DNA of 64,000 nt from a phage. Under the pieces are notes generated by a model. The model had not been told where the DNA came from and searched no databases. It saw only the letters and a program-made list of their open reading frames with translations. The stretch is taken from sequence record PZ179880.1; one strand, given 5' to 3'. Positions 17,391-47,048 of the stretch are shown here, in pieces (positions within the stretch are counted from its first letter, which is position 1; each line of letters opens with the position of its first letter). The translations under genes were made by a program, and so were the position numbers.

Positions 17391-17861
17391 TTAATCATGT
17401 TTCCACACCCCATCGGTATTTGACCAAAGTCGCTGATTATCTGAACCTCGCCACAGCTTTTTGGTCGGAAGATTTTTCTCATACTTCCCATCAATAATAA
17501 CATCAACATATTTAAGCATTTCTAGTTGTTTAATATCTTCAAACTTGTACCCTGTCCACAACCAAATGCTTTTATTTGGATAAAGATTTTTTACTGTTTG
17601 AACAATGCAATGAACAACATCTCGGTTATCAGGATAAAGAGGGTCTCCTCCAGTTATAGTTAATCCTTCTATATAATCATTATTCAAACATTCAATTAAT
17701 TGTTCTAGTGTTTCACCAGTGAATGGAACGCCATTTCTAGCATTCCATGTTGATTTATTATAACACCCTTCACATTTATGCAAACACCCCGTAACGAAAA
17801 GAACGACCCTGCATCCAGGGCCATTCACAAAATCACAGGGATAAAATCTATCGTAATTCAT
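17391..17861 (-). CDS. nrdG: Anaerobic ribonucleotide reductase activating protein (radical SAM)
   Basis: 156 aa; cysteine cluster CLHKCEGC. Confidence 0.92.
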   Translation of the reverse strand: MNYDRFYPCDFVNGPGCRVVLFVTGCLHKCEGCYNKSTWNARNGVPFTGETLEQLIECLNNDYIEGLTITGGDPLYPDNRDVVHCIVQTVKNLYPNKSIWLWTGYKFEDIKQLEMLKYVDVIIDGKYEKNLPTKKLWRGSDNQRLWSNTDGVWKHD

Positions 17862-19675
17862 TGGTGTTTAACCCTATGCATGATTTCTTTATTTTTGCCA
17901 AGATTAAATCCGCGCTCGTTCGGATTTCCCAAATAACCGCAAGTTCTTCTTATTGTGTTCATCTTTTTAGGATCAGTTTCTCCACAAATAGAACAAACAA
18001 ACCCGTTTTCAGTAGGAGTCATTTCATGGGTACTTCCACACGTAAAACATTTATCTACTGGCATGTTAACACCAAAATAATCTAAATGTTGTGCAGCATA
18101 ATCCCAGACAGCCTCAAGACCTTTTAGGTTATTTTTCATATCAGGAAGTTCAACATAAGAAATGTGACCACCTGTCGCAATGAAATGATATGGGGCTTCG
18201 CGAGAAATCTTTTCAAACGGAGTAATATTTTCTTCTACTGAAACATGGAAACTGTTAGTGTACCATCCTTTATCGGTAACATCTTTTACACTTCCATATT
18301 TTTTTGTATCAAGTTTACAGAAGCGATAACAAAGGTTTTCAGCAGGAGTCGAATACAAACTAAAAGCAAACCCAGTTCTTTCAGCCCACTGTTTAAGACG
18401 AGCATTCATTTTAGTTAAAATTTCTTGTCCAATATCACGACCGACAAGAATATTCAATTCATGAATACCAATGTATCCTAAAGACACTGAACTTCTACCG
18501 TTTTTAAATAACTCAATTATGTCGTCATCAGGTTTAAGACGAACCCCGAATGCACCTTCTTGGTAAAGAATAGGAGCAACAGTCGCTTTAACTCCTTTTA
18601 AGGAACTAATTCTACACATCAAAGCTTCAAAACATAAATCCATTCGCTCATTGAACAATTCAGTAAATTTCTGTTCATTGAACTGTGTTCCAATATAAGA
18701 ATCCAACGCAATACGAGGAAGATTCAGTGTTACAACACCAAGATTATTACGTCCATCAAGAATTTCATTACCGGTTGAATCTTTCCACGCGCTCAAGAAA
18801 CTGCGGCAACCCATTGGAGAAACAGGAATAGATGAGCCGGTGATAGCTTTATTGTTCTTAGCTGAAATAATATCAGGATACATCCTTTTGCTTGCACACT
18901 CTAGAGCAAGCTGCTTAATATCATAGTTCGGATCGTCTTTATAAAGATTAACACCTTCTTCAACGAACATAACAAGCTTAGGGAAAATAGGAGTTATCCC
19001 ATCACGACCGAGACCTTTAATACGATTTTTCAGAATTGCTTTCTGAATCATTCGTTCAGTCCAGTCAGTTCCCGTACCAAATGTAATTGTTACAAAAGGA
19101 GTCTGTCCGTTTGAACTAAAGAGAGTATTTACTTCATATTCATAAGCTTGGAATGCATCGTATACATCTTTTTCTGTTTTAGATTGAGCATAATTTAACG
19201 CATCAGCGATTTGCCATTTTTCTGCATCCTCAATATGTTTTGCATAGGTGCGTTTAACATAAGGAGAAAGTACTTTATCTACATTAGCAAAAGTCGTTCC
19301 GCCATATTGATGGGAAGCAACTTGCGCAGTAATTTGTGCCATAATTGCAGTAGCAACGCCAATTGATTTAGGAGTTTCAATCTGCGCATTACCAAGCTTA
19401 AATCCGTTCTCAAGCATTCCTTTTAAATCTACTAAACAGCAATTAGTAAATGGAAGAGCAGGGGAATAATCAATATCATGAAAATGAATAATTCCGCTTT
19501 CATGCGCTTTCATAATAAAAGACGGGACCATATTTTTGGCAATGTGTTTAGACACAATACCAGCCATAAGGTCCCGTTGAGTTGGAAAAACACGAGAATC
19601 TTTATTAGCATTCTCGTTCAAAAGGTCTTTATTAGTTTTATGAATCAATCCTTCAATTTCTTTTTCAATTGTCAT
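17858..19675 (-). CDS. nrdD: Anaerobic ribonucleoside-triphosphate reductase (glycyl radical enzyme), uninterrupted
   Basis: 605 aa continuous ORF; C-terminal Zn-ribbon cysteines and glycyl-radical region. Confidence 0.95.
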   Translation of the reverse strand: MTIEKEIEGLIHKTNKDLLNENANKDSRVFPTQRDLMAGIVSKHIAKNMVPSFIMKAHESGIIHFHDIDYSPALPFTNCCLVDLKGMLENGFKLGNAQIETPKSIGVATAIMAQITAQVASHQYGGTTFANVDKVLSPYVKRTYAKHIEDAEKWQIADALNYAQSKTEKDVYDAFQAYEYEVNTLFSSNGQTPFVTITFGTGTDWTERMIQKAILKNRIKGLGRDGITPIFPKLVMFVEEGVNLYKDDPNYDIKQLALECASKRMYPDIISAKNNKAITGSSIPVSPMGCRSFLSAWKDSTGNEILDGRNNLGVVTLNLPRIALDSYIGTQFNEQKFTELFNERMDLCFEALMCRISSLKGVKATVAPILYQEGAFGVRLKPDDDIIELFKNGRSSVSLGYIGIHELNILVGRDIGQEILTKMNARLKQWAERTGFAFSLYSTPAENLCYRFCKLDTKKYGSVKDVTDKGWYTNSFHVSVEENITPFEKISREAPYHFIATGGHISYVELPDMKNNLKGLEAVWDYAAQHLDYFGVNMPVDKCFTCGSTHEMTPTENGFVCSICGETDPKKMNTIRRTCGYLGNPNERGFNLGKNKEIMHRVKHQ

Positions 19676-37757: not shown

Positions 37758-37981
37758 ATACTGGCTTCTTTGAGTTTCGTTTTAGCAATAGTTAACTGAT
37801 CGAGGCTTTCAGCATAATTCTTCGCGAATTCACAGTCTTCACAATTATCTAGTGCTTCCCAAAATTCATCGTATAAAGCGTCAAAGATAAGTCCTAATCG
37901 AACTTCAGCGTCTTTGATAGCATTCACTTTACCGATTTTCTTTTCAGTATGCGGTTTATAACCTTTAATATCTTCAATCAT
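37715..37981 (-). CDS. Hypothetical protein
   Basis: 88 aa ORF. Confidence 0.45.
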
Positions 37982-38195
37982 ATTCTACTTCCTCACCCGT
38001 TCCCAAATCATATTCAACTAAACGAATAGGTTCATGAATGCTATATCCTTGAACAGAAATTTCTGTCGTAGGATAAATTCCATTAATATCACCCATATTC
38101 CAAGCTTCATTAAATTGTTGTTCGCCTGAATTACTAAACCACTCTGCGAAAGCATTTAGTACATCTTCAGAACCTTCAATAATTATCTTTGCCAT
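37974..38195 (-). CDS. Hypothetical protein
   Basis: 73 aa ORF. Confidence 0.45.
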   Translation of the reverse strand: MAKIIIEGSEDVLNAFAEWFSNSGEQQFNEAWNMGDINGIYPTTEISVQGYSIHEPIRLVEYDLGTGEEVEYD

Positions 38196-38557
38196 TACAG
38201 ACTCTCAGTAAAGGTACGAGCAATAACGTCGCGCTGCTGTTCCGGAGTCAGAGAGTTAAAGCGAACTGCATAACCGGATACACGGATGGTCAGCTGCGGA
38301 TATTTTTCCGGATGCTTAACTGCATCTTCCAGAGTTTCACGACGCAGAACGTTTACGTTCAGGTGTTGACCACCTTCAATTTTAACTGTAGGCTGTGGTT
38401 CAATTTCAATTTCACGTGCATGCAAACCGCAGAAAATTTCTGGGTCTACAAAAGAGTCCTCTTTAAAGGTTTTAGAGACAATAATTCGCGCTTGAATACC
38501 ATCTTCAAAATAAATAGTACCTTTATGTGTGCCTTCAAGAATTTGATATGCTTTCAT
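38195..38557 (-). CDS. Autonomous glycyl radical cofactor (GrcA/YfiD-like)
   Basis: 120 aa; C-terminal ~60 aa ([60 protein letters not shown]) matches E. coli GrcA as I recall it, including the RVSGY glycyl-radical motif. Confidence 0.85.
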
Positions 38558-38563
38558 ATAACC

Positions 38564-38944
38564 TCAATTAGAAAATAAATTTATCCAAGATTGTTCTTTA
38601 ATTAAAAATGGCTCAGAATCATATGCTATTAAACTTTGGGTGATTAGTCCTTTAAAAGGTCCATCAATAAATTCCATGGTAAAATATGGAATTTTATTCA
38701 TTAATCTTGCATTAGGAGCCGTGCACAAAACTCTGCATCCTTTGAATACGCCTTTTTGTAATTTGTATTGCTTGGGATAAAATTCGCTCAAAATGTTATT
38801 TTTTGCCAAAATTTCAAAATGATTCACCAATTTATTTTTAATAGTTTTTGGCGAAAAATAAAGATATTCGAAAAGCTGAGTGTCTGTCATCATTGCATTC
38901 CGATTACGAAAAACTGTGGACGAGTAATACCACCAATGCAGCAT
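38564..38944 (-). CDS. Hypothetical protein
   Basis: 126 aa ORF. Confidence 0.5.
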   Translation of the reverse strand: MLHWWYYSSTVFRNRNAMMTDTQLFEYLYFSPKTIKNKLVNHFEILAKNNILSEFYPKQYKLQKGVFKGCRVLCTAPNARLMNKIPYFTMEFIDGPFKGLITQSLIAYDSEPFLIKEQSWINLFSN

Positions 38945-39477
38945 TTACTATTGCAACAGTGATGCACAGTTTCAATATGAATATCGTAAATTTTATCCAT
39001 ATCAGGAGATTTAACAGGCTCATCGATTATATACAAAATCCGCGAAAGCGATAAACCTCTGAACTTGCTTCCTTTATTACCGATAAAACTACGGACAGAA
39101 TCGGTAAATAAGCGGAATCGAATATCATCGCTAGAATAACGAGAAAATTCTTTTTTAATGTGGCCCGCAGAAATTTTAGCATAAGCTGAAGTATTAGAAA
39201 GAACAATAACTGTTCCGCCATCATACAGCCAATTAGCAGCGAAGTTAGTCACAGCAGTTGATTTACCGGATTGACGTCCACCATCTAGTCGAAGTGTGCA
39301 ATACTGTTTGAGTAAGTCTTCAAATGGTGGGATATAATCGTTTTTACAAATTTCTTCTACTCTAGCATCAGAATGGTGTGTAAAAGCATTCATCAGGGAT
39401 AGATAAGGACCAGTTAAAAATGTTCTCATTTTGTTATCTCTAAATTTGGGCCATTCCATGGCGCATGAATTTTCCAT
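38890..39477 (-). CDS. Small P-loop NTPase
   Basis: 195 aa; Walker A GGRQSGKST, Walker B-like ILYIIDEP. Confidence 0.55.
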   Translation of the reverse strand: MENSCAMEWPKFRDNKMRTFLTGPYLSLMNAFTHHSDARVEEICKNDYIPPFEDLLKQYCTLRLDGGRQSGKSTAVTNFAANWLYDGGTVIVLSNTSAYAKISAGHIKKEFSRYSSDDIRFRLFTDSVRSFIGNKGSKFRGLSLSRILYIIDEPVKSPDMDKIYDIHIETVHHCCNSKCCIGGITRPQFFVIGMQ

Positions 39478-39582
39478 TTCTGTATTTACCCATTACCGCA
39501 CTTGGGCTCGACCTTATTACAGGTTGGCGGGAATCCCTCATAGAATCATGAGGTCCAGCTTGTTCCCATATTTCTTATTTGC

Positions 39583-40056
39583 TTATTTGAATGATTTGAC
39601 ATACTGAACAGAACCTTTGCTATTCACAAAGGCGATTTTACCATTTTTGTTATACATGGTGGCAGTACGCTGATAGCCATAAGTTTGCTTACCAGATTGA
39701 TAACCAACTAATGCAAAATTATCTTCGCCCATTTTATTCTGCTTAGCGCGGATGCGTTCATGGCCGTGTGCCATAAGAACCTTAGCATCACCAGTTGCAA
39801 TGGATCTACGAGTTTTTTCATCTTCAACTGTATTAACAAAATCGTCAAATGAATCAAATTTAGCATGGGATTTATTATACAGTTTTCCATCTACTGCATA
39901 ATTATATCCCTGTACATCCATCTCAACTTCTGTACCATCATCCAATACAGCAGTGATTTTTTGACCTTTTTTAAATTTCAAAAGATCAGTAAAAGATTCA
40001 GCAATAATTTGAGAATTAATAGCTGCTTCAGTGATAAATTCTTGATATGTTTTCAT
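39583..40056 (-). CDS. Internal head protein with capsid-targeting leader
   Basis: 157 aa; N-terminus MKTYQEFITEA matches the T4 IP capsid-targeting consensus. Confidence 0.7.
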   Translation of the reverse strand: MKTYQEFITEAAINSQIIAESFTDLLKFKKGQKITAVLDDGTEVEMDVQGYNYAVDGKLYNKSHAKFDSFDDFVNTVEDEKTRRSIATGDAKVLMAHGHERIRAKQNKMGEDNFALVGYQSGKQTYGYQRTATMYNKNGKIAFVNSKGSVQYVKSFK

Positions 40057-40065
40057 ATGTTTCCT

Positions 40066-46029: not shown

Positions 46030-46105
46030 TGGTCGAGGCAGTAGGGATCGAACCTACGACCTAGGACTTAGAAGGTCCTTGCTCTTCCTTCTGAGCTATG
46101 CCCCG
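46030..46105 (-). tRNA. tRNA-Arg (anticodon TCT), CCA encoded
   Basis: Hand-folded cloverleaf: acceptor CGGGGCA/TGCCTCG, anticodon loop CTTCTAA, T-loop TTCGATC. Confidence 0.85.
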
Positions 46106-46109
46106 TAAT

Positions 46110-46184
46110 TGGGTGACCGATGGGAGTCGAACCCATGACTACGAGAATCACAATCTCGAGTTCTACCAACTGAACTACGGCCAC
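46110..46184 (-). tRNA. tRNA-His (anticodon GTG) candidate
   Basis: Acceptor GTGGCCG/CGGTCAC, D-stem GTTC/GAAC, anticodon loop TTGTGAT; no G at -1, so His identity is tentative. Confidence 0.65.
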
Positions 46185-46298
46185 ATTAATACCTACTCCA
46201 ACAATCAAGATGTCTTCACACGAAATTAAGAGAAGAGTGATCAGTTCAACCCCTATAATCGCGTCAAGTAGGTATTAATGTGACAGTTGTCACAAATT
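46185..46298 (-). ncRNA. Structured spacer inside the tRNA cluster (candidate small RNA or processing element)
   Basis: Flanking inverted repeat TAATACCTACT / AGTAGGTATTA and palindrome TGTGACAGTTGTCACA; no ORF. Confidence 0.3.
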
Positions 46299-46374
46299 TG
46301 GCGGACGTGATAGGATTCGAACCTATAACCAATCGCTTAACAGGCGATCGCTCTGCCATTGAGCTACACATCCA
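46299..46374 (-). tRNA. tRNA-Asn (anticodon GTT), CCA encoded
   Basis: Acceptor GGATGTG/CACGTCC, anticodon loop CTGTTAA, T-loop TTCGAAT. Confidence 0.8.
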
Positions 46375-46378
46375 AATT

Positions 46379-46465
46379 GGTGGGGAGTGGTGGAGTCGAA
46401 CCACCCGAGTCGCAATGACAATGGATTTACAGTCCACACCGCTACCTCTACGGGATAACTCCCCC
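46379..46465 (-). tRNA. tRNA-Tyr (anticodon GTA), type II with long variable arm
   Basis: 87 nt; acceptor GGGGAGT/ACTCCCC, anticodon loop CTGTAAA, CCA encoded. Confidence 0.8.
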
Positions 46466-46475
46466 AAATTAATTT

Positions 46476-46550
46476 GGTGGCCCTGGGTGGAATTGAACCA
46501 CCATCTGGCGATTATGAGTCGCTTGCTTGAACCTTCCAGCTACAGGGCCT
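46476..46550 (-). tRNA. tRNA with CAT anticodon (Ile2-type by T4 position, or Met)
   Basis: Acceptor GGCCCTG/CAGGGCC, anticodon loop CTCATAA; 1 nt from tRNA-Thr (dimeric precursor). Confidence 0.8.
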
Positions 46551-46551
46551 T

Positions 46552-46627
46552 GGTGCTGATTGACGGAATCGAACCGCCGACCTTCTCATTACAAGTGAGT
46601 TGCTCTACCTACTGAGCTAAATCAGCA
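46552..46627 (-). tRNA. tRNA-Thr (anticodon TGT)
   Basis: Acceptor GCTGATT/AATCAGC, anticodon loop CTTGTAA, T-loop TTCGATT. Confidence 0.85.
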
Positions 46628-46632
46628 AAACT

Positions 46633-46722
46633 GGCGGAGGCGATAGGATTTGAACCTATGAGTCGCCGGAGCGACTGCCGGTTTTCAAGACCGGTGCATT
46701 AAACCACTCCGCCACGCCTCCA
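46633..46722 (-). tRNA. tRNA-Ser (anticodon TGA), type II
   Basis: 90 nt; acceptor GGAGGCG/CGCCTCC, anticodon loop CTTGAAA, long variable arm. Confidence 0.85.
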
Positions 46723-46724
46723 GT

Positions 46725-46798
46725 CTCCGTGGCAGGATTTGAACCTACGACATTCTGCTCCCAAAGCAGACGCTCTACCAAACTGAGCTACACGGAGT
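46725..46798 (-). tRNA. tRNA-Pro (anticodon TGG), CCA not encoded
   Basis: Acceptor CTCCGTG/CACGGAG, anticodon loop TTTGGGA; 2 nt from tRNA-Ser (dimeric precursor). Confidence 0.85.
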
Positions 46799-46807
46799 AA
46801 ATTAAAT

Positions 46808-46882
<75 letters not shown>

Positions 46883-46887
46883 AATTT

Positions 46888-46974
46888 GGTGCGAGAAGTG
46901 GGACTCGAACCCACAAGGAAATCATTCCGCAGCATTTTAAGTGCTGTGCCTTTACCAATTTGGCCATTCTCGCG
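46888..46974 (-). tRNA. tRNA-Leu (anticodon TAA), type II
   Basis: 87 nt; acceptor GCGAGAA/TTCTCGC, anticodon loop CTTAAAA. Confidence 0.85.
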
Positions 46975-46975
46975 C

Positions 46976-47048
46976 TGGGAATAAAGGACTCGAACCTTTG
47001 CATCCTGGAATCAAAATCCAGTGCCTTACCAACTTGGCTAATTCCCAA
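46976..47048 (-). tRNA. tRNA-Gln (anticodon TTG), CCA not encoded
   Basis: Acceptor TGGGAAT/ATTCCCA, anticodon loop TTTTGAT; 1 nt from tRNA-Leu (dimeric precursor). Confidence 0.85.

Follow-up and report, generated by a model that had tools for sequence, protein, structure and literature searches.

A host-like segment in the T-even phage gene vs.6 points to repeated replacement by host grcA

How does a gene of a lytic phage come to end in DNA that is almost letter for letter that of its bacterial host? To our knowledge, T4 and its relatives are usually said to share no DNA similarity with the host. The question is raised by a GrcA-type gene on the minus strand of a 64,000-nucleotide (nt) stretch of phage DNA from record PZ179880.1 (hereafter, the window), at positions 38195–38557. 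The phage is a Tequatrovirus, whose nearest record over this gene is Escherichia phage ECO07P4 (99.7%). The encoded protein is identical to T4 vs.6 (Y06I) at 118 of 120 residues, and the gene lies between vs.7 and vs.5 homologues on the same strand, with regB and denV nearby, which is the position of vs.6 in T4. An original prediction had described the 3′ half as host-like and the gene as a mosaic built by recent capture of the end of Escherichia coli grcA. Our analysis shows that the 3′ half is indeed host grcA DNA, but the gene itself appears to be an old phage grcA homologue in which the 3′ part was replaced by homologous recombination (gene conversion), and not a fusion, because its 5′ half is still GrcA-like at the protein level. 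The parts of the gene are as follows.

38195–38557, minus strand: GrcA-type coding sequence (CDS) of 120 residues, ATG to TAA, ortholog of vs.6/Y06I, from the list of open reading frames (ORFs) and the match to T4 vs.6
38380–38557, minus strand: phage-type 5′ half, gene nt 1–178, residues 1–59, the N-terminal part of GrcA in diverged form, AT-rich and in phage codons
38205–38379, minus strand: host-derived tract, gene nt 179–353, residues 60–118, the whole glycyl radical domain, with 174 of 175 nt as in E. coli grcA
38195–38204, minus strand: phage-type tail, GAG AGT CTG TAA, with G354 and T357 common to distant phage homologues
38354, minus strand: gene nt 204, A here, an A/T polymorphism common to E. 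coli and phages
38339, minus strand: gene nt 219, T here, a T/C polymorphism common to E. coli and phages
38276, minus strand: gene nt 282, C here, a C/A polymorphism common to E. coli and phages
38222, minus strand: gene nt 336, T here (ATC>ATT), the sole in-tract difference from E. coli
38273–38275, minus strand: codon for Gly95, the glycine of RVSGYAV predicted to carry the radical, from alignment to YfiD and to residues 697–759 of pyruvate formate-lyase (PFL)

At the protein level, residues 61–120 equal residues 68–127 of E. coli GrcA at 60 of 60 positions, RVSGYAVRF included, just as the original prediction had stated. At the DNA level, gene nt 179–363 (window 38379–38195) match grcA by blastn in 5,426 of 5,426 complete E. 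coli genomes, with 98.4% identity among the matches listed, and a pairwise alignment runs through 157 identical bases in a row (gene nt 179–335; 38223–38379) before it meets three synonymous differences. We set the end of the tract at gene nt 353 because the last bases are phage-type; the predicted host-like interval, 38195–38380, was therefore accurate to within about 10 nt, with its last 10 nt belonging to the phage and the tract itself occupying 38205–38379. Over these 175 nt, identity to E. coli grcA is 100% in Shfl2 (175/175), 99.4% in the phage studied here (one C>T, at nt 336) and likewise in Mosigvirus RPN187, 98.9% in T4 (173/175) and 97.7% in Mosigvirus ChristianSchoenbein. When the whole window is compared with E. 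coli genomes by megablast, the tract is the only protein-coding match, with weak tRNA matches besides. For some Mosigviruses blastn carried the host match as far as E. coli nt 162, but this proved to be a chance extension, and the junction was unchanged on inspection.

Both borders of the tract give way to phage-type sequence. Nucleotide identity to E. coli grcA is only about 45% across the 5′ half, which follows the phage lineage, with 88–97% identity to Tequatrovirus and Mosigvirus, 71% to Jiaodavirus and 60% to Slopekvirus and Pseudotevenvirus. BLASTP aligns residues 22–120 to E. coli GrcA, reaching into the N-terminal half, and this part of the gene appears to be a diverged GrcA N terminus and not unrelated phage sequence. 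At the other border, the terminal codons GAG AGT CTx hold bases that are common to phages and absent in hosts (T4, Mosigvirus, Jiaodavirus, Slopekvirus and Pseudotevenvirus compared), with GAG AGT/GCA CTA as the ending in Jiaodavirus, Slopekvirus and Pseudotevenvirus; the exact right junction differs slightly among T4, the phage studied here and Mosigvirus. A segment of host identity thus stands between phage-type flanks within one reading frame, and it follows the host species where the 5′ half follows the phage, as is characteristic of intragenic recombination.

Base composition and codon use change along the gene in the way that had been predicted. The G+C content (GC) is 0.35 in the 5′ half, with 0.20 at third codon positions (GC3), and rises to 0.486 in the tract, with a GC3 of 0.41. 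The tract value is reached by none of the 11,122 in-frame 59-codon windows taken from the 49 long ORFs of the window, for which the maximum is 0.475. Leucine is encoded by CTG at 5 of 5 positions in the tract, against a background of 6%, and proline by CCG at 3 of 3, against 15%. A compositional break is therefore present together with the high host identity. We nevertheless dropped GC as a diagnostic of host origin, as phage homologues without host-level identity have a GC of 0.44–0.49 in the same part of the gene. The decisive evidence for host origin is nucleotide identity; GC alone is not diagnostic.

How exceptional this identity is can be judged from other phages. GrcA homologues are widespread, occurring in T4-like genera, T5-like phages and jumbo phages, and their radical domain is nearly the same protein throughout. 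Set against 81 host grcA genes, the homologues of Slopekvirus, Pseudotevenvirus, Krischvirus, Karamvirus, Biquartavirus, T5-like and jumbo phages show only 70–86% nucleotide identity to any of them. The BLASTN comparison proposed with the original prediction thus comes out clearly, at 174 of 175 nt here against 70–86% there. At a match probability of 0.86 per base, 175 matches would have a probability of approximately 3e-12, and given the range in the other homologues, the observed identity lies beyond protein constraint or codon selection. The E. coli-type tract (at least 95% identity) occurs in 637 phage records, including T2, T4, RB, Shigella and Yersinia phages. The host grcA 5′ half is found in none of the phage records that have the tract, with at most 58% of the E. 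coli gene covered. IMG/VR gave six close Tequatrovirus relatives, so that the population sample is small. The recent capture first imagined, if taken as private to this phage, does not agree with the presence of the tract in T4 and the 637 records, nor with the Klebsiella-type counterpart and the shared E. coli alleles described below.

The Klebsiella-type counterpart came from a Klebsiella pneumoniae grcA query, taken from a chromosome filed in the plasmid collection and searched against the phage collection. It matches 106 Klebsiella-phage records, mostly Jiaodavirus, at 95–98.2% identity, and the matches cover only nt 202–369/374 of grcA, the same part as the E. coli-type tract. The Jiaodavirus gene has a phage-type 5′ half, 71% identical to that in the window, and shares with the window gene its junction and its phage-type tail. 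Its tract is approximately 96–98% K. pneumoniae-like and 87% E. coli-like, the two hosts differing by 13% in this region. In Klebsiella phage Nispero (Jiaodavirus), GC is 0.365 in the 5′ half and 0.571 in the tract, with a tract GC3 of 0.64; the corresponding region of K. pneumoniae grcA has a GC of 0.583 and a GC3 of 0.66. The E. coli and Klebsiella tract types are separated by two residue differences (E/K versus L/E) alongside more than 20 silent differences, and this combination of few residue and many silent differences is the pattern that recombination itself would be expected to leave. Because two phage lineages each nearly match their own host, which a single capture followed by divergence cannot give, at least two independent replacements are needed, one yielding the E. 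coli-type and one the K. pneumoniae-type tract. Jiaodavirus W1W2-10 had reached 87% identity to any host in the GTDB sample because K. pneumoniae is missing from that sample, and the K. pneumoniae chromosome resolved the discrepancy.

Some of the records concerned are irregular in their own right. PLSDB entries CP125156.1, NZ_OL790696.1 and NZ_CP141089.1 are whole K. pneumoniae or E. coli chromosomes (4.8–5.4 Mb) entered there under plasmids. The vs.6 match of 359 nt in Klebsiella phage KPV15 (IMG/VR copy) is out of frame, and in Klebsiella aerogenes NCTC10006 an extra A shortens the annotated grcA CDS; both are probably sequencing errors. Klebsiella phage vB_Kpn_AM_K4, which at 288,685 bp is unusual for Straboviridae, has a Jiaodavirus-type vs.6 beside tRNA genes and may be a concatenated or chimeric assembly.

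Within the E. coli-type tract, phages and hosts vary at the same sites. Among four E. coli strains the tract varies at gene nt 204 (A/T), 219 (T/C) and 282 (C/A) alone, and among 12 Tequatrovirus and Mosigvirus phages the only non-singleton polymorphisms of the tract are at nt 204, 219 and 282, with alleles as in E. coli. The chance of three host sites all falling within 7 variable of 40 third positions is 0.0035, before any match of alleles is required. Metagenomes were also scanned, with a search pattern that allowed any base at these three sites, and the 80 stretches read comprise 78 host-type and 2 phage-type contigs. The haplotypes at nt 204/219/282 are distributed as follows.

ATC: 22 host contigs, 3 of 14 phages
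TTC: 31 host contigs, 5 of 14 phages
TCC: 16 host contigs, 1 of 14 phages
TTA: 8 host contigs, 2 of 14 phages
TCA: 1 host contig, 1 of 14 phages
TTT: 0 host contigs, 1 of 14 phages
TGC: 0 host contigs, 1 of 14 phages

T at nt 282 also occurs in one Escherichia sp. genome, which leaves TGC as the sole phage haplotype without a host counterpart. At gene nt 336, C is found in 78 of 78 host-type contigs. In the hosts, the tract haplotypes are in linkage with variants of the host 5′ half and are therefore native host allele lineages. In the phages, the haplotypes cut across kinship: the 5′ half of the window gene (haplotype ATC) is nearer to that of T4 (TTC) than to that of Shfl2 (ATC). Furthermore, synonymous divergence (dS) between Tequatrovirus and Mosigvirus is 0.36–0.48 in the 5′ half and 0.02–0.17 in the tract, approximately four-fold lower, and the tract forms a peak of identity (98–100%) across 3.3 kb in which the flanks are at 65–90%. 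Recurrent replacement within E. coli phages, from different E. coli alleles, is probable on this pattern. We also lean, with some reserve, towards the stronger proposal that exchange between T-even phages and the host chromosome is still going on at this one locus, with the tract re-copied from the grcA allele of the current host.

Composition and linkage point to a transfer from host to phage. Along E. coli grcA, GC is uniform (0.48 and 0.49 in the two halves), and the two halves of host grcA diverge equally between species; the phage genes are discontinuous, and the composition of their tract follows each host. The reverse course, in which E. coli and Klebsiella acquired the tract from phages, for instance in survivors of abortive infection, could draw on the two-way exchange reported for cyanophage psbA (PMC1484495) and on the presence of the T204 and C219 alleles in distant phage homologues as well. 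It is extremely unlikely in view of that uniformity of host grcA, the linkage of tract haplotypes to host 5′-half variants and a tract composition that fits each host and not the phage. A scenario without any transfer, in which purifying selection and host-optimal codons drove phage and host to convergence, would be in keeping with a domain that is almost invariant across phage and host homologues and with the raised GC of the same part in phages lacking host identity. We find it scarcely credible, because the other genera encode nearly the same 60 residues at their 70–86% nucleotide identity to any host, and convergence cannot yield a 157-nt perfect run, host-species-specific tracts or shared neutral polymorphisms. 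The chance that host reads were merged into the phage during assembly is negligible: nothing speaks for such an artefact beyond the identity itself, and the same junctions are seen in 637 phage records of independent origin, including T2, RB phages and the reference record of T4, and in metagenome phage contigs, with a continuous reading frame and a conserved phage-type tail.

More weight must be given to a single capture by the ancestor of Tequatrovirus and Mosigvirus, followed by vertical descent and phage–phage recombination, with the shared polymorphisms arising as parallel mutations. All Tequatrovirus and Mosigvirus phages do have the same left junction and the G354/T357 tail, and Tequatroviruses from Yersinia, Salmonella and Citrobacter retain the E. 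coli type, as this account would have it. We consider it unlikely all the same. The Klebsiella-type tract at the same position in Jiaodavirus already demands a second event, each of the three sites that vary in E. coli varies in phages too, with identical alleles and in shared haplotypes, the tract shows an inter-genus dS about four-fold below that of the 5′ half, and the right junctions differ. The explanation that we favour, and hold to be quite probable, is a vs.6 copy whose tract was overwritten by host grcA at least twice and probably many times.

Several observations weigh against this explanation or narrow it. The passage of DNA from host chromosome to phage is deduced from sequence comparison. 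The number of events is estimated from a sample of 14 phages and from three sites shared with the host, with modest statistics (p approximately 1e-4 to 4e-3), and the scan pattern fixed the other sites, so that further host polymorphisms in nt 181–300 escape it. Fewer host-to-phage events could suffice if phage–phage recombination then spread the alleles. The E. coli-type tract is kept by Tequatroviruses that were isolated on Yersinia, Salmonella or Citrobacter; exchange is therefore not instantaneous, and the tract need not reflect the isolation host. Finally, the protein scores 154.3 bits against its best NCBIfam family, GrcA TIGR04365 (IPR011140), short of the NCBI equivalog cut-off of 170, because its N-terminal half has diverged; E. 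coli GrcA scores 233.9 bits on the same model.

A plausible course for replacement can be outlined. During infection, host DNA fragments with grcA would pair with vs.6 where the two are homologous, and the recombination and replication machinery of the phage would copy the host segment into vs.6. Pairing would stop on the left where the 5′ half is too different (about 45% identical), and on the right homology would end about 10 nt before the stop codon, at the start signals of the next gene. A first replacement would give perfect homology and so favour further exchange. Such a process would be akin to the marker rescue (insertion-substitution recombination) from plasmids that is practised in T4 genetics, only taking place in nature. 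In that laboratory technique, infecting T4 recombines with plasmids that carry short homologous inserts. The likeness lies in short homology within cytosine-containing resident DNA being copied by the phage recombination machinery; the difference is that the donor for vs.6 would be the host chromosome, in nature, as judged from sequence comparison.

What the protein would do in the infected cell is suggested by its relatives. At 120 residues it has the size of the small stand-alone GrcA proteins (about 120–130 residues), and, as in these, its C-terminal part is a glycyl radical domain: Pfam Gly_radical covers residues 61–101 (E = 3e-18). The best solved relative is E. coli YfiD/GrcA (PDB 6OWR, E = 7.5e-42), and the second best is the C terminus of PFL, where residues 58–120 align to PFL 697–759 (E = 4e-26) and the radical loop RVSGYAV is identical. 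We take Gly95 to be the counterpart of GrcA Gly102 and PFL Gly734. T4 vs.6 is annotated in RefSeq as ‘autonomous glycyl radical cofactor GrcA’. As related in PMC8683613, T4 Y06I takes the radical from PFL activase and rescues oxygen-cleaved host PFL (Wagner et al. 2001), and the same paper gives biochemical validation for YfiD and Y06I only. By its 98% identity to Y06I, the protein encoded in the window should receive a radical from the host PFL activase and replace the oxygen-cleaved C-terminal domain of PFL. With PFL rescued, fermentation would go on supplying acetyl-CoA and ATP to the infected cell in habitats poor in oxygen.

The original prediction had offered such a spare radical domain to either host PFL or the phage enzyme NrdD. 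For PFL, the role had already been reported for the T4 ortholog (Wagner et al. 2001, as cited in PMC8683613). For NrdD, the phage does encode the enzyme (17858–19675, minus strand) and its partner NrdG (17391–17861, minus strand) in the window, as had been noted. Both lie approximately 19 kb away, NrdD is likewise a glycyl radical enzyme, and a role in nucleotide metabolism was suggested when the conserved Gly_radical ORF was remarked on (Nolan et al. 2006, PMC1524935). It is nonetheless very unlikely that the protein serves as a spare radical domain for NrdD, activated by NrdG. BLASTP against the NrdD of the window detects no similarity (E = 8), with the radical loop unaligned. By comparison, the domain matches E. 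coli GrcA at 60 of 60 residues and PFL 697–759 at E = 4e-26, and T4 Y06I works with PFL and PFL activase according to PMC8683613.

The surroundings of the gene add two features that bear on its expression and on that of its neighbour.

38562–38565, minus strand: GAGG ribosome-binding site of the GrcA gene, read from the sequence, overlapping the stop codon of the upstream vs.7-like ORF
37974–38195, minus strand: downstream vs.5-like ORF of 73 residues, its ATG overlapping the TAA of the GrcA gene (TAATG)

The 10-nt phage-type tail overlaps the start of the vs.5-like ORF and its likely Shine–Dalgarno sequence (GAGAG). No Pfam family matched the vs.5-like ORF at 37974–38195, which has 73 residues in this phage and 58 in the T4 annotation. 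On the opposite strand, an ORF of 129 residues (38189–38578, plus strand) spans the whole GrcA gene and is probably a by-product of coding-strand composition. Upstream, between the vs.7-like gene and denV, lies a hypervariable-looking spot at about 38900–40060 on the minus strand, with ORFs at 38890–39477 and 39583–40056. Conservation is lacking here even between close Tequatrovirus relatives: compared with one of them, identity falls to 30–50% from approximately 1,050 nt upstream of the GrcA gene and is 94–100% elsewhere; the same stretch is also unlike the vs.8 layout of T4.

Further afield, nrdG (156 residues) and nrdD (605 residues) are adjacent with a 4-nt overlap (17391–19675, minus strand), and nrdD is one uninterrupted ORF; the nrdD of T4 carries a group I intron. 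The window also has 11 tRNA genes at 46030–47047 on the minus strand (Arg, His, Asn, Tyr, Met, Thr, Ser, Pro, Gly, Leu and Gln), where T4 has 8. Besides the grcA tract, the only E. coli megablast match among the matches listed is at 46375–46468, with 89.5% identity to tRNA-Tyr on a 102-kb O111:H8 replicon.

One 175-bp block, the only protein-coding E. coli match in 64 kb, thus tracks both the species and the alleles of the host, a clean and testable case in the best-studied lytic phage. Recurrent exchange, if it occurs, would provide a natural setting, simple and open to experiment, for studying how a lytic phage recombines with the chromosome of its host, and a way to measure such recombination in nature. 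The tract would then be a record of the recent host species of a phage lineage, even of the host allele, and E. coli-type and Klebsiella-type tracts could serve as host-species markers in phage genomes. Why the radical domain alone is host-identical may be explained by homology limiting exchange, or by a need for the domain to fit host PFL and its activase. There is a practical side as well. Phage grcA has been chosen as a core-gene target for quantitative PCR (qPCR) of Straboviridae (PMC12845203), and in its 3′ half, where the main genera are 95–100% identical to the E. coli or Klebsiella chromosome, qPCR primers could amplify host DNA and read mapping could confuse the two. A decontamination filter could likewise mistake the phage tract for host sequence.

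Both the gene and its biochemical function have been described before. The comparison with T4 that had been proposed for this gene leads to vs.6/Y06I, which shares with it the 118 of 120 residues, the genomic position and the same host-like tract (T4 173/175 to E. coli); the two proteins differ in C43 versus Y and R73 versus H, nt 204 is A here and T in T4, and the right junction is slightly shifted. E. coli GrcA (6OWR) has the same overall architecture and identical C-terminal 60 residues, with 99.4% DNA identity over 175 nt, whereas the N-terminal 59 residues of the phage protein are only weakly similar, seven residues shorter, and encoded in phage codons by DNA that is about 45% identical. 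The Jiaodavirus vs.6 agrees in the type of its 5′ half (71% nt identity), in its junction positions and in its phage-type tail, and differs in that its tract is K. pneumoniae grcA (95–98%, 106 records) and not E. coli grcA.

Our literature search found no account of the host tract in vs.6, its Klebsiella counterpart or the shared polymorphisms, although an earlier description is possible. The closest described phenomenon is found in the cyanophage genes psbA and psbD, for which Zeidner reportedly described host–phage intragenic recombination in 2005. Such recombination, with patchy G+C and exchanged segments, is documented for these genes (Sullivan 2006, PMC1484495). In both systems a host-derived metabolic gene is found in T4-like phages and segments are swapped between copies. 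In vs.6, unlike psbA and psbD, the tract is one sharply bounded block with 99–100% identity to the current host species, in an enterobacterial model phage, and neutral polymorphisms are common to phage and host populations.

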